From: an uncultured Verrucomicrobiae bacterium
Lineage (GTDB): Bacteria; Verrucomicrobiota; Verrucomicrobiia; Limisphaerales; UBA11358
DNA length: 64,000 nt
NCBI GenBank assembly: GCA_963835625.1
Contig: CAWIGO010000002.1
Coordinates: 8,116-72,115 of the forward strand
Direction: 5' to 3'
Part shown: piece after piece, positions 2,990-63,682 of the stretch
How the letters are laid out: each line of letters opens with the position of its first letter
Position numbering within the stretch: the first letter of the stretch is position 1
Notes under the pieces: model-generated
What the model was told of the DNA's origin: nothing
The model's database searches: none
The model's input: only the letters and a program-made list of their open reading frames with translations
Position numbers and translations under genes: made by a program

Positions 2990-3079
2990 TCATTCCGCAA
3001 TCAGCTTGGCCGCTGGTTTCTGACGCAGATCAAAGAAATCGTAGATTTTGAAGAAGAGTTGGCGGCAGCGAAGAATTAG
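2990..3079 (+). repeat. Diverged second copy of the carB-N 3' terminus (encodes [22 protein letters not shown]-stop)
   Basis: Protein-level match to the carB end ([22 protein letters not shown]-stop) with the stop codon at the equivalent position. Confidence 0.85.
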
Positions 3080-3083
3080 TCAG

Positions 3084-3134
3084 GTAGGGCGCGCCACTCC
3101 GTGCGCGCCGGTGGGGCGAGCGTCCTCGCGAGCC
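3084..3134. repeat. REP-like pair: GTAGGG head plus hairpin, followed by a GTGGGG unit
   Basis: GTAGGGCGCGCCACTCCGTGCGCGCC followed by GGTGGGGCGAGCGTCCTCGCGAGCC. Confidence 0.6.
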
Positions 3135-3221
3135 GTAACTAAAATTAGGAAACTTGAAGTCACAAACTGTGACCTCAAAGGTAGTCGCAACCTGTGACCA
3201 CCTCTCAGAGAAAGGGAAAAA

Positions 3222-3782: not shown

Positions 3783-3810
3783 CTCAACCCTCAACCATGA
3801 ACTCTCAACC
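3783..3810. repeat. 7-bp-period tandem array (CTCAACC units)
   Basis: ctcaacc ctcaacc atgaact ctcaacc, read directly. Confidence 0.7.
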
Positions 3811-3814
3811 GACT

Positions 3815-3880
3815 TCGTTTCTGGTGCAGGTTAAAGAGATTGTGGATTTTGAGGAAGAACTGGCGGGGGCGACGAAATGA
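3815..3880 (+). repeat. Diverged third copy of the carB-N 3' terminus (encodes [21 protein letters not shown]-stop)
   Basis: Protein-level match to the carB end with the stop at the equivalent position. Confidence 0.8.
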
Positions 3881-7058: not shown

Positions 7059-7113
7059 GGTAGGGACGCCTCGCCGAGGCGTCCGCGGACGGCTAGGGCC
7101 AGCCGTCCCTACC
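7059..7113. repeat. REPIN: two inverted REPs, each a GTAGGG head plus an 8-9 bp stem
   Basis: GGTAGGGACGCCTCGCCGAGGCGTCC ... GGACGGCTAGGGCCAGCCGTCCCTACC. Confidence 0.8.
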
Positions 7114-7870: not shown

Positions 7871-7930
7871 GGTGGGGCGAGCGTCCCCGCGAGCCGGAAA
7901 TTTCGGTCGCCTCGGCGAGGCAACCCTACC
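7871..7930. repeat. REPIN (GTGGGG unit plus inverted GTAGGG unit)
   Basis: GGTGGGGCGAGCGTCCCCGCGAGCC ... GGTCGCCTCGGCGAGGCAACCCTACC. Confidence 0.75.
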
Positions 7931-10382: not shown

Positions 10383-11831
10383 ATGGACGACACGAATTCA
10401 TTGATCGAACAACGCAAGGCCAAGCTGACCGCGTTGCGCGCCAAGGGCATTGACCCGTTCAAAAATAAATTCACGCCCGGCGAAACCTGCGAGCATGCGC
10501 GCGACCATTACGCCGAAGGCCGTGAAGTCGCCATTGCCGGTCGCATTACCGCGCACCGCGAGATGGGCAAAAGCATGTTCATTGACGTGCGCGACCAGAG
10601 CGGACGCATCCAGGCTTACGCGCAGAAAAATGTCCTCGGCGACGAGCAATTCGACATCTTCCGGCATCTCGACCTCGGTGATTTCATCGGCGCACGTGGA
10701 CATTTGTTCACAACCAAAACCGGTGAAATTTCCATCAAGCTCGCCAGCTTCACGATTCTGGCCAAGGCGTTGCGTCCGCCACCGGCGAAATGGTATGGAC
10801 TTGAAGACACGGAAATCCGTTACCGCCAACGTTATCTCGATTTGATGGCGAATCCAGAAGTGAAGGATGTTTTTTTCAAGCGCAGCCAAATCATCGCCGA
10901 GATCCGGAATTTTCTACATTCGCGCGGCTTTGTGGAAGTCGAGACACCGATGATGCAGGCGATTCCCGGCGGCGCGGCGGCGCAACCGTTCAAGACGCAT
11001 CACAACGCACTCGGCTGCGATTTTTATCTGCGCATTGCGCTGGAACTTTACCTTAAGCGTCTGCTTGTCGGCGGTGTGGACAAGGTTTTCGAGATTGGCC
11101 GCATCTTCCGCAACGAAGGTTTTTCGCGCAAACACAATCCCGAATTCACGATGTTGGAACTCTATCAGGCCTACGGCGATTACGAGAGCATGATGGAACT
11201 CATGCAAGGCATGGTCTGCCACGTTGCGCAAAAAGTTTTGGGCACGCTGAAAATCGAAACCAAAGACGCCGGGGGCAAGGTCACCAAAACAATTGATCTC
11301 ACGCCGAACTGGAAGCGTGTGAAATACAAGGATCTTGTGCGTGGAAAAGCGGGCGCGGATTGGTTTGACGTTTCACCAAAGGAACGGCACGAGCGCGCAA
11401 TCAAACTCGGCGCAGAGATTGCGAAGGACTACGAAGATTTTGAAGTCACACAGGCCGTATTCGAGAAGCTGATTGAACCAACACTTATCAATCCGACGTT
11501 TGTGACACACGCGCCGAAGGAATTGATTCCACTCGCCAAACTTTCACCCGACGATCCGACGACCGTCGAAGTTTTTGAGTGCTGCATCAACGGCCAGGAA
11601 ATCGCGCCTGCTTACACCGAACAGAACGACCCGATTGAGCAGCGCGAACGGCTGGAGCATCAGGCCGGCGGCGAGCAGCAAAAGCTGGATGAAGATTTTC
11701 TTGTCGCGCTCGAACATGGCATGCCTCCGGCGGGTGGCATGGGCGTGGGCATTGACCGTTTGTGCATGATGCTGCTCGGTCAGGAAAGCATCCGCGACGT
11801 GATTTTATTCCCGCAGTTGAAGCCAAAATAA
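10383..11831 (+). CDS. lysS: Lysine--tRNA ligase (class II)
   Basis: 482 aa with class II motifs ([33 protein letters not shown]). Confidence 0.95.
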   Translation: MDDTNSLIEQRKAKLTALRAKGIDPFKNKFTPGETCEHARDHYAEGREVAIAGRITAHREMGKSMFIDVRDQSGRIQAYAQKNVLGDEQFDIFRHLDLGDFIGARGHLFTTKTGEISIKLASFTILAKALRPPPAKWYGLEDTEIRYRQRYLDLMANPEVKDVFFKRSQIIAEIRNFLHSRGFVEVETPMMQAIPGGAAAQPFKTHHNALGCDFYLRIALELYLKRLLVGGVDKVFEIGRIFRNEGFSRKHNPEFTMLELYQAYGDYESMMELMQGMVCHVAQKVLGTLKIETKDAGGKVTKTIDLTPNWKRVKYKDLVRGKAGADWFDVSPKERHERAIKLGAEIAKDYEDFEVTQAVFEKLIEPTLINPTFVTHAPKELIPLAKLSPDDPTTVEVFECCINGQEIAPAYTEQNDPIEQRERLEHQAGGEQQKLDEDFLVALEHGMPPAGGMGVGIDRLCMMLLGQESIRDVILFPQLKPK

Positions 11832-13323: not shown

Positions 13324-13482
<159 letters not shown>

Positions 13483-25497: not shown

Positions 25498-26643
25498 ATG
25501 GCGAGGACCTTTCGTGTCGGCCTAATCGGCTACCGCTTCATGGGCAGGGCGCACTCGAATGCCTGGCGGCAGGCGCCACGCTTCTTCAATCTCAAGGCGA
25601 ATGTCGAGATGCACACCCTATGCGGGCGCGATGTGGTAGGGGTGCAAATGGCGCGCGCACAACTCGGCTGGCAGAACACCACGACGGATTGGCGCGAAAT
25701 TGTCGAATCGCCGCTGATTGACATCGTGGACATCGTCACGCCGACGAATTTTCACGCGGAAATGGCGATTGCCGCGGTGAAAAACGGCAAGCACGTTTTG
25801 TGCGAAAAGCCGCTGGCGCTGAATCTCAAACAGGCCGAGGCGATGTTCGCCGCCGCGCACAAGGCGAAGGTCGTCCACATGGTCTGCCACAATTACCGGC
25901 GCATTCCGGCAATCGCGCTGGCGAAGCGGATGATTGGCGAAGGCGCGCTGGGCCGGATTTTTCATTTTCACGCGCGTTACGCGCAGGACCGGCTGGCCGA
26001 CCCGGAATTTCCGCTGGACTGGCGTTTGCAAAAGGAGACCAGCGGCTGTGGCGTCCACAGCGACATCAATTCGCACGTCATTGATTTGGGGCGTTACCTC
26101 GTCGGCGAATTCAAGGAGGTCTGCGGGTTGCTGAACACGTTTATACCGGAACGTCCGCTGGCGGATGCGCTGGCCAAAGGCGCGCGCAGGATGGGCAAGG
26201 TCACCGTGCCGGACTCCGCAATGTTCATCGGGCGGATGGAAAATGGCGTGCTGGCGAACGTGGAAGCCACGCGCTACGCGCTCGGCCGCAAGAACCACAT
26301 CGCTGTCGAAATCAACGGAAGCAAAGGCTCGATCTATTTTGATTTTGAGGACATGAACCGGCTGAAATTTTACAATGGCGACGACCCGAAAGACCGGCGG
26401 GGTTTCCGCGACATTCTCGTGACGGAGCGCGACGGCGTGCAACCGTATGTCGGCCATTGGTGGCCGCCGGGACACGGCATCGGCTACGAACACACGTTCA
26501 TTCATGTGGTCGCCGATTTTGTGAACGCCTGCGTCGAGAGGAAACCGGCGCAACCAACTTTTGAGGATGGCTTGAAAAATCAGCGCGTGCTCGCCGCCGT
26601 CGAGGAATCGGCCAAAACCGGCAAATGGGTGAAATTGAAATGA
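25498..26643 (+). CDS. Gfo/Idh/MocA family oxidoreductase
   Basis: N-terminal Rossmann VGLIGYRFMGRAH and an EKP motif (VLCEKPLA). Confidence 0.85.
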   Translation: MARTFRVGLIGYRFMGRAHSNAWRQAPRFFNLKANVEMHTLCGRDVVGVQMARAQLGWQNTTTDWREIVESPLIDIVDIVTPTNFHAEMAIAAVKNGKHVLCEKPLALNLKQAEAMFAAAHKAKVVHMVCHNYRRIPAIALAKRMIGEGALGRIFHFHARYAQDRLADPEFPLDWRLQKETSGCGVHSDINSHVIDLGRYLVGEFKEVCGLLNTFIPERPLADALAKGARRMGKVTVPDSAMFIGRMENGVLANVEATRYALGRKNHIAVEINGSKGSIYFDFEDMNRLKFYNGDDPKDRRGFRDILVTERDGVQPYVGHWWPPGHGIGYEHTFIHVVADFVNACVERKPAQPTFEDGLKNQRVLAAVEESAKTGKWVKLK

Positions 26644-26698
26644 TTTGACCCGCCCGTCCGCGCGCCGGTGCGCATTGAAAAAGGCCGCTGGTCATTGT

Positions 26699-26735
26699 GC
26701 CCGCGTGGCGAAATTGGCAGACACGCCAGATTCAG
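26699..26735 (+). pseudogene. tRNA-Leu 5' half remnant (acceptor, D arm and anticodon stem up to CAG)
   Basis: GCCCGCGTGGCGAAATTGGCAGACACGCCAGATTCAG aligns to the first 37 nt of the intact tRNA at 27232, then the similarity stops. Confidence 0.85.
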
Positions 26736-26891
26736 TTTTTTACGTTCACCATTTTTAGAGGACATCTCCGCGTTTCAATGAGAGCGATAATGGCGGGGAT
26801 TTTGCAAAGTTATAAATAATTCTATACAGGCTGAAGAATGTGTTATAAACGGCATTAACCCATTAAAAACCATCGTGAATGAAACCAAAAT

Positions 26892-27092: not shown

Positions 27093-27176
27093 TGTTTGAG
27101 GCGGCGGCTCAGCCGGTGCTCAAGGCGGTGTGTCGAAGAATCGTCCAAAGCCGGCAAGTGGGTGAAATTGGAATGA
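27093..27176 (+). pseudogene. Diverged, frameshifted copy of the oxidoreductase 3' terminus
   Basis: Encodes LFEAAAQPVLKAV / (1-nt shift) / VEESSKAGKWVKLE-stop, against TFEDGLKNQRVLAAVEESAKTGKWVKLK-stop in the gene. Confidence 0.8.
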
Positions 27177-27231
27177 TTTGGCTTGCCCGTTCATGCGGTG
27201 GCGCGTATTGAAAGAAGCTGCCGGTCATCGT

Positions 27232-27316
27232 GCCCGCGTGGCGGAATTGGCAGACGCGCTAGATTCAGGTTCTAGTGGGTAACACCATACAGGTTCAAAT
27301 CCTGTCGCGGGCACCA
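27232..27316 (+). tRNA. tRNA-Leu (anticodon CAG), type II with a long variable arm and encoded CCA
   Basis: Manual fold: acceptor GCCCGCG/CGCGGGC, anticodon stem CTAGA/TCTAG with loop TTCAGGT, T arm ACAGG-TTCAAAT-CCTGT. Confidence 0.9.
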
Positions 27317-51212: not shown

Positions 51213-51956
51213 GTGTCCGACACACTGGTTGTCAACGAAATCTATTTGGGCCTGCAAGGGGAAAGCACCTTCGCCGGGCTGCCGTGCGTTTTTATCCGGC
51301 TCACCGCCTGCGACTTGCGCTGCTCGTATTGCGACACCGCCTACGCCTTCACCGAAGGCAGAAAAATGTCGCTCGGAGAAATCCGCGCGGCAGTGCAGCG
51401 CTTGGCCTTGCCATTCTCAAATCCGAAATCCGAAGTCCGAAATCAAAAATTGCCCCTGGTCGAGCTGACCGGCGGCGAGCCGTTGCTTCAGAAAAATTCC
51501 CTGGCGCTGATGGAGCAGCTTTGTGACGATGGGTTCACCGTTCTTCTCGAAACCAGCGGCGCACACGACATTTCTCAAGTGGACGCCCGGGTTCGCCAGA
51601 TCATGGATTTGAAATGTCCCAGCAGCGGCGAAGTCGCGCGCAATCGTCTTGAGAACATTCCGCACCTCAAGGCCACCGATGAAATCAAATTCGTCGTTGG
51701 CACGCAGCAGGATTACGATTGGGCAAAGCAAAAAATTTCCGAGCACAAGCTCGACGCCATTTGCCCGTTGTTAATTTCGTGGGTGCAGCCGCTCGCGCCG
51801 GAGCAGCGGGATACATCGCTTAAAAAAGTTCCATTGGGGCAGACGCCCATTTCACGCCAGCAACTCGCGGAAAAAATCATCGCCGACGCACTGCCCGTGC
51901 GTTTTCAGATTCAAATACACAAGGTGATTTGGCCGCCGGAGCAACGCGGCGTTTGA
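51213..51956 (+). CDS. queE: 7-carboxy-7-deazaguanine synthase (radical SAM)
   Basis: LQGESTFAGLPCVFIRLTACDLRCSYCDT and TGGEPLLQ motifs. Confidence 0.9.
   Translation: MSDTLVVNEIYLGLQGESTFAGLPCVFIRLTACDLRCSYCDTAYAFTEGRKMSLGEIRAAVQRLALPFSNPKSEVRNQKLPLVELTGGEPLLQKNSLALMEQLCDDGFTVLLETSGAHDISQVDARVRQIMDLKCPSSGEVARNRLENIPHLKATDEIKFVVGTQQDYDWAKQKISEHKLDAICPLLISWVQPLAPEQRDTSLKKVPLGQTPISRQQLAEKIIADALPVRFQIQIHKVIWPPEQRGV
51420..51447. repeat. 7-bp-period tandem array (AATCCGA-type, 4 units) inside queE
   Basis: aatccga aatccga agtccga aatcaaa. In frame as NPKSEVRNQ. Confidence 0.85.
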
Positions 51957-53257: not shown

Positions 53258-53365
53258 ACACGGATGGACACGGATATGGAAAACAAATCTTTACGCGAAT
53301 GCCGCCAATTGTCGCGAATTGTTTGCGTCTGTTTTTTAATTCGTGCCAATTCGCGCAATTCGTGT
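53249..53365. repeat. Composite repeat: 10-bp-period array (CACGGATNNN x3) plus a CGCGAATTG-type inverted repeat
   Basis: cacggataaa cacggatgga cacggatatg. Arms 53293-53321 and 53339-53365 are partly complementary. Confidence 0.6.
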
Positions 53366-53396
53366 AAAAGCTGCTTTCCCGGTGAAGCTTTCTGAG

Positions 53397-54230
53397 ATGC
53401 GGGAACTTCTGGCCACGCGCGGGATTCAGTTGACGAAATCCCTCGGCCAGAATTTTCTGCACGACGGCAATCAACTTCGGCGCATCATTGAGGCGGCGGA
53501 ATTAAAAAAGACGGACAAAGTCCTTGAAATCGGGCCGGGACTTGGGCCGCTCACCGAATTGCTTTTGGAAAGAGCGGGTGAGGTTTTGGCCATTGAAAAG
53601 GACGCGCGGCTGGTGCAATTTTTGCGCGAGCGATTTTCCAACCCGCAATCCGTAATCCGCAATCCGCCATTGCATTTGCTCCACGCCGACGCGCTTGAAT
53701 TCCTGCGTCGTGAGCCGCGCGACTGGAGCGATTGGAAGCTCGTGGCCAATCTGCCGTATTCCGTCGCTTCGCCGATTTTGGTGGAACTGGCGCAATCGCG
53801 CGGGCGACCGGAACGGATGGTCGCAACGCTGCAACTCGAAGTCGCGCGGCGGCTCACGGCCAAAGCCGGCGATGCGGATTACGGCGTGTTCACGTTGCTG
53901 ATTCAACTCGACTATGAATCCCGAAAGACTTCGGGATTCAAGATTCCGGCAAGTTGCTTTTTCCCGGAGCCGGACGTGGATTCAGCATGTGTGGTTTTGA
54001 TTCGCCGCGCCACGCCGCTTTTGCCCGAAAGCCAGCGTGCGGCGTTTGTGAAAATTGTGAAACGGGCGTTTTCGCAGCGGCGTAAAATGATGCTGAAACT
54101 GCTGCGCGAAGACTGGCTGGCGGAGAAATTGGAGCGGGCGTTTGAAGACTTACAGCTTTCGTCACAAGTGCGCGCGGAAGCGGTGAGCTTGGAGCAGTTT
54201 ATTGAGTTAACTCAAATATTGGCGGAGTAG
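53397..54230 (+). CDS. rsmA: 16S rRNA (adenine1518/1519-N6)-dimethyltransferase
   Basis: KSLGQNFL, EIGPGLGPLT, NLPYSVASP motifs. Confidence 0.92.
   Translation: MRELLATRGIQLTKSLGQNFLHDGNQLRRIIEAAELKKTDKVLEIGPGLGPLTELLLERAGEVLAIEKDARLVQFLRERFSNPQSVIRNPPLHLLHADALEFLRREPRDWSDWKLVANLPYSVASPILVELAQSRGRPERMVATLQLEVARRLTAKAGDADYGVFTLLIQLDYESRKTSGFKIPASCFFPEPDVDSACVVLIRRATPLLPESQRAAFVKIVKRAFSQRRKMMLKLLREDWLAEKLERAFEDLQLSSQVRAEAVSLEQFIELTQILAE
53640..53667. repeat. 7-bp-period tandem array (AATCCGC-type, 4 units) inside rsmA
   Basis: aacccgc aatccgt aatccgc aatccgc. In frame as NPQSVIRNP. Confidence 0.85.
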
Positions 54231-56090: not shown

Positions 56091-56166
56091 GGTAGGGACA
56101 CGCGGCCCGCGCGTCCGGCGGAAGTTCCGCTTCCCAACCCGGTCGCCTCGGCGAGGCGCCCCTACC
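56091..56166. repeat. REPIN (two inverted GTAGGG-head REPs)
   Basis: GGTAGGGACACGCGGCCCGCGCGTCC ... GGTCGCCTCGGCGAGGCGCCCCTACC. Confidence 0.75.
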
Positions 56167-59531: not shown

Positions 59532-62435
59532 ATGGACTATAAAAACACATTGAATTTGCCGCGCACCGATTTCCCAATGAGGGCCGATTTGGTGGCGCGC
59601 GAGCCTGAACGGTTGAAAAAGTGGGGGGCGGCGAGGCTTTACGAAAAAATCCAGGCTGACCACGCCAATGTGAAGGAAAAGTTTGTCCTGCACGATGGTC
59701 CGCCGTTTGCCAACGGCGACGTGCACATCGGCACCGCGCTGAACAAGATTCTCAAGGATATCATCGTCAAATACAAGACCTTGCGTGGCTTCAGCACGCC
59801 CTACATTCCGGGTTGGGATTGCCACGGATTGCCCATCGAATTCAAGGTTTCACAGGAGATGCGGAAAGGCCAGAAGTCAGAAGTCGGAAGTCAGAAGCCG
59901 GATCCCGATCGATTTTCGCCGTCCGCGATTCGCAAAGCTTGCGAAGCTTACGCCCGCAAGTTCATTGACATCCAGCGAACTCAATTCAAACGGCTCGGCG
60001 TGCTCGGCGATTGGGACAATCCCTATCTCACATTCAATAAAGAATACGAGGCCGACGAACTGCGCCTGTTCGCCGACATCGTTGAAAAGGGTTTTATCTA
60101 TCGCGGCAAAAAGCCGGTTTACTGGAGCATCCCTTGCCACACCGCGCTGGCTGAAGCCGAGGTCGAATATCAAGACCACGTTAGCCCCAGCATCTATGTA
60201 AAATTTCCGGTCGTCGGCCAGTCAAAAACTTTTATCCTGATCTGGACGACCACTCCATGGACTCTGCCGGCGAATCTCGCGGTGGCTTACAATTCGAAGT
60301 TCCAATACGTGAAGGTCCGCGTCGGCGATGAAAATTACATTCTGTTCCGCGGTCTGCTGGCCGCTGTCGCGGGAAAATGCGGTTGGAGCAATTGCAAAGA
60401 ACAACCGTTTCCAACCAAAAAGCTTGCTGTGCTGCAGTTTCAGCATCCATTCTGTAGTCGCACTGGCAGGTTTTATCCCGCTGACTTTGTTGCCAGCGAC
60501 ACTGGCACGGGCTTCGTCCATATCGCACCGGGACACGGCTTGGAGGACTATCAACTCGGCTCATCTGTCGGTCTGCCGATTTATTCGCCGGTGGATGATG
60601 ATGGTAAGTTCATGCACACGAACGATTTGCCCGTTGAGCAACAGATGCCGTCAGAGATGGTTGGCAAATCCATCCTCGAAAAACATGGCAAGAGCGATGC
60701 GAACGAAGCAGTGCTACATGAACTGCGCGTTCGTAAGGCGCTGTTGCACCAGGAAGATTATCACCACAGCTATCCGCATTGCTGGCGCAGCAAAACGCCA
60801 ATCATTTTCCGCGCAATGGATCAATGGTTCATCGAAATTGACCATGAGAAATTCCGTGACCGTGCTCTGGCAGAAATTGACCGCGTGAACTGGATTCCCG
60901 ATTGGAGCGTCAATCGAATTAAAAGTGCCGTGCAAACTCGTCCCGACTGGTGCATCTCGCGCCAGCGCACTTGGGGTGTGCCGATTCCCGCGTTCTACGA
61001 TGCGAAAGGAAATCCGATTCTCGATGCACAAATTGTTCGCAACGCGGCTGATTTGATTGAAAAGCATGGTTCAAATATCTGGTTCGAAAAATCCGCTGCG
61101 GAACTTTGGTCGCTGGTGAAACCGAAGAATTGGAATGGACCAGAAGCCGTCACCAAATCCAACGACACATTGGATGTGTGGATCGATTCGGGAAGTTCGT
61201 CGCGAAGTGTGCTGATGCGGCGGACGGAACTCCATCATGAGGTAGGGCGCGCTGTCCCCAGCGCGCCGCGGCGCAGTGAGAACACTGCGCCCTACCAGGC
61301 TTGGCAAGCCGACATTTATTTCGAAGGCTCCGACCAGCATCGCGGCTGGTTTCAATCGTCACTGCTGCTGTCACTCGCGGGCAACGGGGCCGCGCCGTTT
61401 AAGACGGTGCTTACGCACGGATTCATGGTGGATGCCGACCGCGAAAAGATTTCCAAGAGCAAACAAAGCCAGGGCGGCTACGAAAAACCGCAGACATCCG
61501 AAGCCTATGTGAAGAAATGGGGCGCGGATATTGTGCGCCTGTGGGTTTCGTCGCAGGATTTTCGCAACGACATCATTGTGAGCGAGGAGCGCATCAACAA
61601 GGTGGCCGAGACCTACCGCGTCATCCGCAACGCGCTGCGTTATCAACTTTCGAACCTTTACGACTTCGATCCGGCAAAACACACCGTGCCGGACGACAAG
61701 CTCACCGGTCTCGACCGCTGGATTCTCGGCGAATTCTCGAAACTGGAGCGGGAAGTCATCGAGGCTTACGATAAATACGAATTTCACGTCGTCTATCAGG
61801 AGGTCAGCCAGTTCATTGCTGTTGAGTTGTCCTCGATTTACCACGACGTCATCAAAGACCGGCTTTACACCGACCCGGCGAATTCGCATCGCCGCCGCTC
61901 GACGCAGACGGCGTTGCACCGGCTCGTGACCGGCCTGTGCCAGATGCTCGCGCCGGTTCTGGCGTTCACGGCAGACGAAGCGTGGGAGTTTGTGCCGGGG
62001 AAAAAGGTGAATTCCGTTCATAAAGCGAATTGGAAACTAATTAAATTCTCGCTGACGGGATCTGAAATAGAAGATTGGGAATATTTATTCGTAGCGCGCG
62101 AAATCTGGTTGCCAATGTTGGAACAGAAACGTCGCGACAAAACTATCGGGAAATCTCTGGACGCTAAAATCCGACCTGTAACCGAACAAATGCCAGAATT
62201 GGCAAATAGCGAAAAACTTCAAGACACATTCAAAGAGTTGTTGAATGTTTCGCAGCTTGAATTTTTATCTTACAAAGGCAATCCAGAAGCCGATTTTACA
62301 GGCAAATTAGTCGTTCATGCTGATGGGCAAAAATGCGAGCGTTGTTGGCATTGGGAAACCGATATCGGTCAGAACAAGGAACATCCGACGCTTTGCGGTC
62401 GTTGTGTCGAGGCGGTGATTCAATTTAAGACGTAA
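59532..62435 (+). CDS. ileS: Isoleucine--tRNA ligase
   Basis: HDGPPFANGDVHIGT (HIGH), KISKSK (KMSKS), EGSDQHRGWF, C-terminal Cys cluster CERCWH...CGRC. Confidence 0.96.
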   Translation: MDYKNTLNLPRTDFPMRADLVAREPERLKKWGAARLYEKIQADHANVKEKFVLHDGPPFANGDVHIGTALNKILKDIIVKYKTLRGFSTPYIPGWDCHGLPIEFKVSQEMRKGQKSEVGSQKPDPDRFSPSAIRKACEAYARKFIDIQRTQFKRLGVLGDWDNPYLTFNKEYEADELRLFADIVEKGFIYRGKKPVYWSIPCHTALAEAEVEYQDHVSPSIYVKFPVVGQSKTFILIWTTTPWTLPANLAVAYNSKFQYVKVRVGDENYILFRGLLAAVAGKCGWSNCKEQPFPTKKLAVLQFQHPFCSRTGRFYPADFVASDTGTGFVHIAPGHGLEDYQLGSSVGLPIYSPVDDDGKFMHTNDLPVEQQMPSEMVGKSILEKHGKSDANEAVLHELRVRKALLHQEDYHHSYPHCWRSKTPIIFRAMDQWFIEIDHEKFRDRALAEIDRVNWIPDWSVNRIKSAVQTRPDWCISRQRTWGVPIPAFYDAKGNPILDAQIVRNAADLIEKHGSNIWFEKSAAELWSLVKPKNWNGPEAVTKSNDTLDVWIDSGSSSRSVLMRRTELHHEVGRAVPSAPRRSENTAPYQAWQADIYFEGSDQHRGWFQSSLLLSLAGNGAAPFKTVLTHGFMVDADREKISKSKQSQGGYEKPQTSEAYVKKWGADIVRLWVSSQDFRNDIIVSEERINKVAETYRVIRNALRYQLSNLYDFDPAKHTVPDDKLTGLDRWILGEFSKLEREVIEAYDKYEFHVVYQEVSQFIAVELSSIYHDVIKDRLYTDPANSHRRRSTQTALHRLVTGLCQMLAPVLAFTADEAWEFVPGKKVNSVHKANWKLIKFSLTGSEIEDWEYLFVAREIWLPMLEQKRRDKTIGKSLDAKIRPVTEQMPELANSEKLQDTFKELLNVSQLEFLSYKGNPEADFTGKLVVHADGQKCERCWHWETDIGQNKEHPTLCGRCVEAVIQFKT
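59872..59899. repeat. 7-bp-period tandem array (AGAAGTC-type, 4 units) inside ileS
   Basis: agaagtc agaagtc ggaagtc agaagcc. In frame as QKSEVGSQK. Confidence 0.85.
61241..61296. repeat. REPIN inserted in frame within ileS
   Basis: GGTAGGGCGCGCTGTCCCCAGCGCGCC + GCGGCGCAGTGAGAACACTGCGCCCTACC. Terminal GGTAGGGCGC/GCGCCCTACC inverted repeat and two internal hairpins. Translates as EVGRAVPSAPRRSENTAPYQ. Confidence 0.85.
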
Positions 62436-62455: not shown

Positions 62456-63313
62456 TTACGCATACAGTCCGTCAACCTGCAACAACGCTAGTTGCGGTGG
62501 CAACCATTCGCTGCCAAGCAATTTGGCGTTCTTACTTTCGTTGCACTGTCCACATGACATGCAAATATTTTCTGGGGAATGCGACCCGCCACGAGCTAAA
62601 GCTACGATGTGTTCAACGTGCATGTTCTTTGTCAAAAACCTCTTGGCACAATATGCACAATCGGCGTGCCTATGTGACAGCATTTGAATGATTTTAAGAT
62701 CGGCGGCTTTAATTTGTTCGGGCGTGCTGTTTTTATATTTGCGGGCGCGGCGGCGATGCCCTTTGGCGCGCACCTTGTCGGGATTGTTAGCCGCCCACCT
62801 TGCGTTAATTATTTTCTTAAAATCTCGGTTTTCAGACCGCCATTTCGCCGAATATTTGACGTTTCTTTCAGGGTGTTGTTTATTCCATTCTTGAATTCTG
62901 GATAGCACCTGATTCCTATTTTTAAGATAATATTTTTTGACAGAGGCTATCTTCTGCCGCCTTACTTCGAGATAATGTTTTGCATCGTATATTTTCTTCC
63001 GCTTGTTATTTTCAGGGTGGGCAGCTTTATACGTCGGCCATTTCGCTAAAATCGCGCCGCGATTTTTGGCATACCACGCCGCGTTTGTGGCTTTGCGCCT
63101 TTCCTTATTTTCCGCCCGCCATTTCGCATCAGCGGCTTTTTTTCGCTCCTTATTTTCACTGACCCATTTCCGGTTACTTGATCTCTCACGATCCTTGTTT
63201 TCGAGATAACGCTTTATCCTATTTGCTTTCTGCGTTGCCCGATTATTTGCATACCATCTTACTTGATAGTCTTTCTGCTTTTTTCTTTGTTCGGGCGAGA
63301 GGATACGTTTCAC
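62456..63313 (-). CDS. HNH endonuclease with a long N-terminal array of ~15-aa basic (W/Y)xxxN repeats
   Basis: HNH core HVEHIVALARGGSHSPENICMSCGQCNESK. About 10 repeat units such as WVSENKERKKAADAK and WRAENKERRKATNAA. AT-rich. Convergent with ileS. Confidence 0.8.
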   Translation of the reverse strand: MKRILSPEQRKKQKDYQVRWYANNRATQKANRIKRYLENKDRERSSNRKWVSENKERKKAADAKWRAENKERRKATNAAWYAKNRGAILAKWPTYKAAHPENNKRKKIYDAKHYLEVRRQKIASVKKYYLKNRNQVLSRIQEWNKQHPERNVKYSAKWRSENRDFKKIINARWAANNPDKVRAKGHRRRARKYKNSTPEQIKAADLKIIQMLSHRHADCAYCAKRFLTKNMHVEHIVALARGGSHSPENICMSCGQCNESKNAKLLGSEWLPPQLALLQVDGLYA

Positions 63314-63399: not shown

Positions 63400-63560
63400 A
63401 AACCAAGCCCCGTCAGGGGCGACATATTTGTAGAAATCGCATCCCAAAACATTTCCAAGCTCCGTCAGGAGCGGCATATTCCGTTCGCCACCAGACGATG
63501 CCGCTTCTGACGGAGCTTGGGATTTCTACAAAACGCAAAACTACAAATATGCCGCGCCTA
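63400..63560. repeat. MITE-like hairpin repeats (CCGTCAGGAGCGGCATAT family)
   Basis: ccaagctccgtcaggagcggcat (63451-) and atgccgcttctgacggagcttgg (-63517) form an inverted repeat. Related half-sites lie at about 63400-63440 and 63535-63560. Confidence 0.6.
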
Positions 63561-63565
63561 CGGCG

Positions 63566-63610
63566 CTTTGCGGCCGTTGTGTCAAAGCAGTAAAACGGTT
63601 CAAGGCATAA
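63566..63610 (+). pseudogene. Diverged second copy of the ileS 3' terminus
   Basis: Encodes (PTA)LCGRCVKAVKRFKA-stop against (HPT)LCGRCVEAVIQFKT-stop at 62391-62435. About 33/45 nt identical by hand count, with the stop aligned. Confidence 0.6.
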
Positions 63611-63682
63611 ACGTGTCACAGACCTCTGGTCTGTATTTCCAACCCCTCACAGGCGTGACGCCCGTGCCACATTTTCGCTCGC

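Follow-up and report, generated by a model that had tools for sequence, protein, structure and literature searches.

A 64,000-nucleotide stretch from an uncultured Verrucomicrobiae bacterium (GenBank assembly GCA_963835625.1, contig CAWIGO010000002.1, positions 8,116 to 72,115; hereafter the window) carries a short palindromic element inside the coding sequence of ileS, the gene for isoleucyl-tRNA synthetase (IleRS; the encoded protein is called IleS below). The element is a REPIN, an inverted doublet of GTAG-headed repetitive extragenic palindrome (REP) units. Its identity as a REP doublet and its status as an insertion are secure. We consider it probable, at about 80%, that a GTAG-family REPIN, of the kind mobilized by REP-associated tyrosine transposases (RAYTs), landed in frame in an IleS loop and that this loop is a permissive landing pad whose occupants turn over. 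On this explanation, the REPIN would be a non-autonomous element that landed in the loop preceding the catalytic EGSDQHRGW strand; the gene would be read through, and the enzyme would carry 18 extra residues. Four features define the gene and the element.

59532 to 62435, plus strand: ileS, the host gene, encoding a type 1 IleRS of 967 amino acids (open reading frame [ORF], translation, PDB and Pfam matches).
61241 to 61296, plus strand: the REPIN, 56 bp, two GTAG-headed REP units tail to tail with a spacer of 0.
61241 to 61268, plus strand: left REP unit, GGTAGGGCGCGCTGTCCCCAGCGCGCCG, with a hairpin at 61246 to 61267 (9-bp stem, loop TCCC).
61269 to 61296, minus strand: right REP unit, GGTAGGGCGCAGTGTTCTCACTGCGCCG in the minus-strand reading, with a hairpin at 61270 to 61291 (9-bp stem, 4-nt loop).

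The host gene is intact. IleS matches PDB entry 8c9e at E = 8e-227, and the alignments to 8c9e and 1ffy (E values from ~1e-222 to 1e-227) cover residues 1 to 962. The Pfam domains tRNA-synt_1, Anticodon_1 and zf-FPG_IleRS were detected on IleS homologues, and the catalytic motifs and the C-terminal zinc finger are all intact in the window protein. The closest IleS proteins carry the names Verrucomicrobiota, Limisphaerales or Pedosphaera.

The first-pass annotation had placed the element in frame between the DVWIDSGSS and EGSDQHRGW motifs, with terminal inverted repeats and two internal hairpins. The sequence (GGTAGGGCGCGCTGTCCCCAGCGCGCCGCGGCGCAGTGAGAACACTGCGCCCTACC), the ORF and the read-through agree on the placement, and the terminal repeats, GGTAGGGCGC and GCGCCCTACC, match exactly as claimed. 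The two hairpins are likewise present, but each is better drawn as a 9-bp stem with a 4-nt loop (GGCGCGCTG-TCCC-CAGCGCGCC on the left, GGCGCAGTG-AGAA-CACTGCGCC on the right) instead of the GCGCGCT-GTCCCC-AGCGCGC form first drawn. The differences between the right-unit stem and the left-unit stem are compensatory pairs. A larger fold is closed by GGTAG/CTACC, and its two arms, 61241 to 61268 and 61269 to 61296, meet without a spacer. Folded as DNA, the 56 bases reach −27 kcal/mol (z = −7.2), and a 74-nt stretch of mRNA around the REPIN reaches −43.4 kcal/mol (z = −5.2); in both cases, 0 of 200 shuffles were as good.

The portion from GTAG to CTAC (61242 to 61295) is exactly 54 nt, or 18 codons, corresponding to V571 to Y588 and the peptide VGRAVPSAPRRSENTAPY, and the gene reads ...HH-E-VGRAVPSAPRRSENTAPY-Q-A-W.... 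Pro, Ser, Ala and Arg are abundant among these 18 residues. The REPIN can be read through in a single sense frame (GTA GGG ...), because the other two contain TAG or TGA. The REPIN would thus survive in ileS because it is 54 nt long, has a single stop-free frame and lies in a loop that tolerates extra residues. If it is translated, the peptides to expect from a REPIN-bearing IleS are AVPSAPR and SENTAPYQAWQADIYFEGSDQHR.

Other classes of element do not describe this segment. An intragenic inverton was ruled out because the arms abut, leaving nothing to invert, and an intein or intron was ruled out for a segment of 18 residues without motifs. A miniature inverted-repeat transposable element is not indicated either: the size is 56 bp versus the usual 70 to 300 bp, and the termini are REP heads. 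No target-site duplication was found in the flanks CATCATGAG and CAGGCTTGG.

Is the segment an insertion, or has this part of the protein always been there? The solved IleRS structures 8c9e and 1ffy align along their full length with a 22-residue gap exactly at the REPIN segment. The span from DVW to RGW is 59 residues in the window and 42 in uninserted relatives, a difference of 17. About 22 of 80 related genome loci are without the segment and show the 42-residue base state (e.g., RRPEIRGKEKPFQADMYL), which is the length class of other bacteria. The segment is an insertion, because it is missing from the solved IleRS and from about a quarter of the related Verrucomicrobiota IleS. The alignment of orthologues therefore bears out the first reading of the segment as inserted, with many close and distant orthologues lacking it. 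The accompanying idea that the insertion is lineage specific holds in part: the segment is absent from many orthologues, but its bearers are scattered over the IleS tree and form no clade. At the orthologous site, relatives are empty, carry this REPIN or carry other repeats. The window REPIN peptide occurs in at least 12 of the 120 closest IleS proteins (74 to 82% identity), and the REPIN DNA occurs at 10 loci, namely the window and the loci labeled L201 to L207, L005 and L057.

These comparisons bear on two ways of explaining the segment away. No mobile element would be involved if it were a low-complexity linker native to IleS that evolves fast and is only incidentally palindromic, and loop length does vary in all relatives. 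We regard this as highly improbable, given that the DNA forms an almost perfect REP doublet with GTAG heads (z = −7), that the left unit is found verbatim at unrelated loci, and that relatives carry near-perfect palindromes from other repeat families as their inserts (−40 to −82 kcal/mol). The third codon positions of the segment are moreover frozen, whereas a linker that evolves fast would show the reverse. Alternatively, the REPIN could be an assembly artefact, or this ileS a decaying second copy in which an insertion has no consequence; the window comes from a metagenome-type assembly, and a second ileS could lie elsewhere in the genome. Both versions, artefact and pseudogene, are very unlikely. 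Ten independent assemblies (JGI, ENA and NCBI) have the same REPIN at this site, which also speaks against the artefact raised with the first annotation; the ORF is intact in all ten, amino acid identity of ~80% against synonymous identity of ~64% indicates purifying selection, the catalytic motifs of the window IleS are undamaged, and the synteny dnaA-glnB(P-II)-ileS is kept.

The ileS REPIN is one of five elements of GTAG-REP build in the window, and the other four are intergenic.

3083 to 3135, plus strand: intergenic REP pair, with the unit GGTAGGGCGCGCCACTCCGTGCGCGCCG at 3083 to 3110 followed by a GTGG-headed unit.
7059 to 7113, plus strand: compact intergenic REPIN, 55 bp, same architecture, different stems.
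7871 to 7930, plus strand: intergenic REP doublet, GTGG-headed left unit and GTAG-headed right unit.
56091 to 56166, plus strand: intergenic REPIN, 76 bp, with a spacer.

The closest relative of the ileS left unit within the window is the unit at 3083 to 3110. The window contains 11 GGTAGGG heads versus 1.43 expected, and 0 of 100 shuffles reached 11. In eight window REP units, GGTAG is invariant, the 9-bp stem runs from GG to CC, and the last base is G. Across their stems, 68 of 72 positions are paired, and 7 of the 9 pairs occur as two or more standard pair types (stem pairs were counted by script, as a MAFFT alignment had put a gap in the stem). Because the stems co-vary, the window family is defined by its head and hairpin. 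The first-pass annotation had assigned the ileS element to the same family as those at 7059, 7871 and 56091; the assignment is right only for the architecture (head, stem, tail G, tail-to-tail doublets), as the stem sequences differ.

Beyond the window, the dispersed family with the pattern GGTAGGGCGCGC-N8-GCGCGCCG was found on at least 120 public metagenome contigs, with 156 units among the matches listed. Only one of these contigs is an ileS contig among the matches listed, and most units lie outside long ORFs, usually as doublets with spacers of 15 to 40 nt. The exact left 28-mer of the ileS element (core TGTCCCCA) accounts for 12 of the 156 listed metagenome units, one of the 12 being in ileS. 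The family is also found in frame within RecG, HrpB, UvrA, a B12/radical-SAM enzyme, uroporphyrinogen decarboxylase (URO-D), a leucine-rich repeat protein of 3818 residues and two orthologues of 2-hydroxyglutaryl-CoA dehydratase D (HGD-D), which share one site. The in-frame copies in these genes lie mostly between Pfam domains and always use the GTA-GGG frame or its mirror. At the ileS locus itself, GGTAGGGCGC heads elsewhere occur at 0.33 per 10 kb in REPIN-bearing versus 0.06 per 10 kb in non-bearing loci, an approximately 5-fold difference based on small numbers. The region 3′ of ileS holds an orthologous intergenic REP cluster (L201, 12951 to 13050; L202, 5942 to 6040; L204, 5070 to 5170), in which the unit GGTAGGGCGCGTTCTCCGAACGCGCCG is kept in all three loci and the adjoining unit decays. 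Thus, the ileS element has a GTAG head on a G+C-rich hairpin, is an inverted doublet and belongs to a dispersed, mostly extragenic family, as a GTAG REP or REPIN should, and its presence or absence at the orthologous ileS site gives the sign of mobility expected of a REPIN.

The same family is associated with transposase genes on other contigs. A tblastn search with an E. coli RAYT sequence (backed indirectly by the match between L139 and PDB 4er8) gave matches at eight of the metagenome REP loci. One ORF, on L139, scores 81.4 bits with NCBIfam NF047646 (cut-off, 80) and matches the TnpA-REP structure 4er8 at E = 8e-9; its sequence identifies it as a predicted REP-associated tyrosine transposase. 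It has REPINs of the GGTAGGGCGCGC family on both sides, and the upstream unit is identical to window unit 3083 to 3110. A second such arrangement, or REPtron, is L097 (NF047646, 73.7 bits). Both REPtrons are compact (L139, 1076 to 1739; L097, 311 to 1279), with RAYT genes of 154 to 155 residues and GGTAGGGCGCGC-family REPINs on either side, and L097 packs seven REP units into 1.3 kb, including a tandem array with a period of 85 nt. Pfam (E ≤ 0.001) gave no match for the small RAYT-like ORFs of L139, L097, L137 and L104, whereas matches were obtained with NCBIfam and PDB.

A larger arrangement is seen at L175 (880 to 4722, minus strand), where an alanyl-tRNA synthetase (AlaRS) ORF, 1280 residues long, includes in frame a Y1 transposase domain of IS200-like/RAYT-like type (Pfam PF01797, 34.5 bits, amino acids 339 to 435) that splits the AlaRS catalytic domain. 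It is flanked by 46-nt direct repeats with two hairpins each, which give GEHTRPRVS.SAPSP on both sides. Judging from these features, the reading frame of an essential gene here apparently runs through an entire REPtron-like unit.

The loop that holds the window REPIN is used by many other repeats in relatives. In the rest of the 120 closest proteins, those without the window peptide, it is either empty or occupied by at least 12 unrelated inserts, which are palindromes or heptamer repeats. At the DNA level, the palindromes are near perfect and belong to families other than that of the window REPIN (for example, 87 nt and −62.6 kcal/mol in L002, 111 nt and −81.9 kcal/mol in L008, and 90 nt and −58.5 kcal/mol in L051). 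The heptamer occupants, of which there are 3 to 4, consist of three to four copies of TCCGCAA, CTCAACC or CGGAAAT. Most inserts begin at one codon position, after CAY-NNN, and the nearest neighbor of the window, L001, has a different palindrome (GTAGGACAGGC...) starting from the same nucleotide. A second IleS loop, QWFIEIDH-EK-FR (amino acids 437 to 441; ~60840 to 60855), is empty in the window and filled in most relatives; its inserts (L002 to L075) are 20 to 45 residues long and represent many palindrome families of the form GTAG...CTAC. The two loops of a single protein often share a family (e.g., L010), and further variable sites lie at amino acids ~112 to 127 and ~264. Because the REPIN loop and other IleS loops hold so many palindromes and heptamer repeats in relatives, we interpret the site as a permissive landing pad whose occupants turn over. 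The loop would cycle through inserts, and a resident REP possibly attracts the next one.

Heptamer repeats are also present in the window. A CAGAAGT heptamer at 59871 to 59897 (3.9 copies, ileS amino acids ~113 to 122) is in frame and encodes GQKSEVGSQK; this site is a third indel hot spot, at which most relatives have the shorter SQEMRKAGDTSADAATIR. With the CAGAAGT repeat and the REPIN, the window IleS carries two repeat-derived inserts. CAATCCG or AAATCCG repeats, of 3.7 to 4.6 copies, are read through in frame in three other window genes.

1711 to 1742: heptamer repeat in the N-terminal half gene of carB (ORF 1432 to 2979).
51419 to 51444: heptamer repeat in a queE-like radical SAM gene (ORF 51213 to 51956).
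53639 to 53667: heptamer repeat in rsmA/ksgA (ORF 53343 to 54230).

A repeat of the CAATCCG/AAATCCG type also fills the REPIN loop of ileS in other species. From their sequences, heptamer repeats look like a second class of in-frame colonizers in this lineage. A literature search on heptamer repeats gave nothing relevant.

The DNA of the REPIN is unusually conserved. The ten REPIN-bearing orthologues share ~80% protein identity and ~64% identity at third positions of codons for the same amino acid, and the mean identity of the REPIN across them is 95.8%. Variability within ileS is distributed as follows.

REPIN, 18 codons (54 nt): variable third positions, 1 of 18; variable bases, 8 of 54.
Each of the other 689 windows of 18 codons in ileS: at least 10 variable third positions; at least 14 variable bases.
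60-nt left flank of the REPIN: 28 variable bases.
60-nt right flank (encodes EGSDQHRGWFQ): 22 variable bases.

Within the REPIN, two bases in the loop of the right hairpin vary, and a C-to-T change at a loop-closing position leaves a G.T pair in place. The other differences are one A.C mismatch, one change in each of the two heads (GTAG to GCAG and CTAC to CTGC) and one C-to-T change at the center. Such extreme conservation implies that the copies are either renewed by a process specific to the element or held by selection on the hairpins.

If the copies are held by selection, a single ancient insertion would now be under purifying selection on its nucleotide sequence, and its scatter among relatives would reflect later replacement in other lineages. 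The hairpins would be useful in the ileS mRNA or DNA, for instance by stabilizing the mRNA, by pausing ribosomes or by binding a RAYT or another protein. Agreeing with this, variability in the REPIN falls below that of every other window of the gene, the boundary with both 60-nt flanks is sharp, most variable sites of the REPIN lie in loops or are C-to-T changes that preserve G.T (G.U) pairing on the sense strand, every copy is the same heterodimer, and the intergenic REP unit 3′ of ileS is likewise kept in L201, L202 and L204 while its neighbor decays. However, on a neighbor-joining tree built from 66 IleS proteins (854 columns without gaps, hot spots excluded), REPIN presence required 7 to 10 changes in 100 bootstraps (8 being commonest), near the 10.3 changes of shuffled tips. 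Other insert types are as scattered as the REPIN, and one site allows only one ancestral type; the nearest neighbor, L001, has its different palindrome at the same nucleotide. Stems that never vary give no covariation support for structure, and we know of no function for any intragenic REP. On balance, we think that one ancient insertion maintained by selection is rather unlikely.

Could the conservation instead reflect recency? The copies may be young and repeatedly renewed, by RAYT action at the resident REP, by gene conversion or by short-patch transfer between lineages, with the same master REPIN being reinserted at or copied into the site. The scatter of the REPIN and of every other insert type over the IleS tree suits such renewal, as do the single codon position after CAY-NNN at which different families begin, the frequent sharing of a family between the two loops of one protein and the higher density of same-family heads near REPIN-bearing ileS genes. 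REPIN master sequences have also been reported to be constant across species (bioRxiv 10.1101/2021.07.10.451892). Yet no donor copy was found, the exact heterodimer being confined to ileS among the metagenome matches listed, and most lineages have the same junctions. REPINs have been reported to duplicate at a very low rate, ~1e-8 per generation. Patch recombination with long flanks is unsupported: no raised synonymous identity, the sign of such recombination, was found in the REPIN flanks, which speaks against this version of renewal. We hold repeated renewal to be possible, and no more than tentatively so.

Several observations weigh against the landing-pad interpretation proposed above. All ten ileS copies are one heterodimer, with the left unit core TGTCCCCA and an unusual right unit (stem GCGCAGTG), and the exact heterodimer was not found outside ileS among the metagenome matches listed; a single origin fits this better than repeated insertion. 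The turnover is read from a single-protein neighbor-joining tree, which recombination may distort. No RAYT gene was detected in the 64-kb window (best tblastn E = 4.1), so the link of the ileS REPIN to a transposase comes from other metagenome contigs, and RAYT-mediated single-strand transposition is the inferred route of this copy into the gene. The REPIN would be translated as part of IleS, to judge from the reading frame, and a position of the loop on the IleS surface is assumed: an AlphaFold2 model of the window protein (mean predicted local distance difference test score, 45; predicted template modeling score, 0.29) was too weak for surface mapping, its 40-sequence alignment being too shallow because all sequences are at least 74% identical.

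The ileS element falls within a kind that is already known. GTAG- and CGTC-tagged REPs were defined by Di Nocera, De Gregorio and Rocco (2013, BMC Genomics 14:522; PMC3733652), and GTAG sub-families are described there by head and hairpin, as for the window family. Intragenic GTAG REPs are most numerous in the verrucomicrobium Opitutus terrae, whose REP dimers have spacers of 1 to 2 bp; intragenic targets include uvrA, helicases and tRNA synthetases, and the IleRS of Erythrobacter litoralis (ELI_13550) carries a REP dimer at residues 467 to 488 (PMC3733652 and its Additional file 3). Because intragenic GTAG REPs and a dimer in IleRS are thus on record, the ileS REPIN belongs to a known kind.

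The likeness is closest to families GTAG-17 to GTAG-20 of O. terrae, which share a GTAG (sometimes GTGG) head beside a stem of 5 to 13 bp, dimers with spacers of 0 to 2 bp, a verrucomicrobial host, in-frame inserts of 20 to 30 residues beginning VG... (e.g., VGPALAAGREQRARLPAAGERPPY) and helicases, UvrA and tRNA synthetases as targets. The ileS REPIN differs in belonging to another REP sequence family and in having a host that is Limisphaerales or Pedosphaera-like and not from the Opitutales. The ELI_13550 element is also an in-frame REP dimer in IleRS, of 22 residues, but it is of CGTC type and comes from an alphaproteobacterium; its site (~amino acid 467 of 965) looks nearer to the second hot spot at amino acids 437 to 441 than to the site of the ileS REPIN. 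With REPIN-RAYT systems (Bertels and Rainey 2011, PMC3116915; Nunvar et al. 2010; E. coli TnpA-REP, PDB 4er8), the ileS element shares the inverted REP-hairpin doublet, the GTAG head, the dispersed multicopy family and RAYT genes flanked by the same REPs, here on L139 and L097. Classical REPINs are, however, extragenic by definition and by observation, whereas the ileS copy is coding.

Rickettsia palindromic elements (RPEs; Ogata et al. 2000 and 2002; Claverie and Ogata 2003) are reported to lie in frame in essential genes without destroying them. The ileS REPIN resembles them as a palindromic in-frame insertion in an essential gene and differs in its head, which is GTAG and not CGTC. RPE-1 is longer than the ileS REPIN, RPEs are not known to be related to it in sequence, and RPE hosts have reduced intracellular genomes, unlike the large, free-living soil genome of the ileS REPIN host. 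The earlier view that such colonization is rare outside Rickettsia is contradicted by the 2013 survey, which records GTAG and CGTC REPs in frame within genes of many bacteria, classes RPE-4 and RPE-6 as CGTC type and equates intragenic repeats of R. conorii with CGTC families (PMC3733652).

Repeats of other types lie around ileS and elsewhere in the window. Just 3′ of the ileS stop, the segment 62436 to 63611 contains a minus-strand ORF with an HNH nuclease motif (62456 to 63313) and, at ~63520 to 63611, a remnant of the last ~30 ileS codons (WDFYKTQNYKYAAPTALCGRCVKAVKRFKA*) that is 50% identical to the real C terminus. The closest relative, L201, is without this HNH cassette, whose appearance suggests a mobile insertion by which the 3′ end of ileS was replaced or duplicated. 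The cassette also holds, at 63455 to 63520, a 23-nt inverted repeat (CCAAGCTCCGTCAGGAGCGGCAT and ATGCCGCTTCTGACGGAGCTTGG, 96% complementary, 20-nt spacer), a palindrome type different from the GTAG REPs. Near carB, the final 70 nt of the N-half gene are present in three diverged copies (70% and 60% identity), at 2903 to 2972, 3003 to 3072 and 3804 to 3873, and the REP pair at 3083 to 3135 lies between these copies, which suggests repeated insertions at the 3′ end of the carB N-half. Two pairs of direct repeats of ~140 nt lie farther along, at 11692 to 11830 and 13343 to 13481 (94% identity, 1.65 kb apart) and at 26599 to 26738 and 27132 to 27271 (83% identity, 0.53 kb apart).

Taken alone, the ileS REPIN is one more example for the catalogue published in 2013. 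What goes beyond the known kind, and is unreported in PMC3733652, is the use of one loop by many repeat families together with conservation of the REPIN above that of synonymous sites, so that an 18-codon, selfish-looking insert is more conserved in its DNA than the adjoining codons of a catalytic motif. We tentatively suggest that some Limisphaerales-like IleS loops are landing pads on which many REPIN families and heptamer repeats succeed one another and that the resident REPIN is actively maintained at the nucleotide level; maintenance by hairpin selection or by RAYT-dependent copying may then have made the REPIN the most conserved DNA in an essential gene. If this is true, the synonymous sites of the host gene provide a built-in neutral clock, and intragenic REPINs would allow a direct test of maintenance versus tolerance. 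If confirmed on genome phylogenies, such insertions would offer an internally controlled system for distinguishing selection on REPINs from their renewal by a transposase and would also show how essential enzymes absorb repeated peptide insertions.

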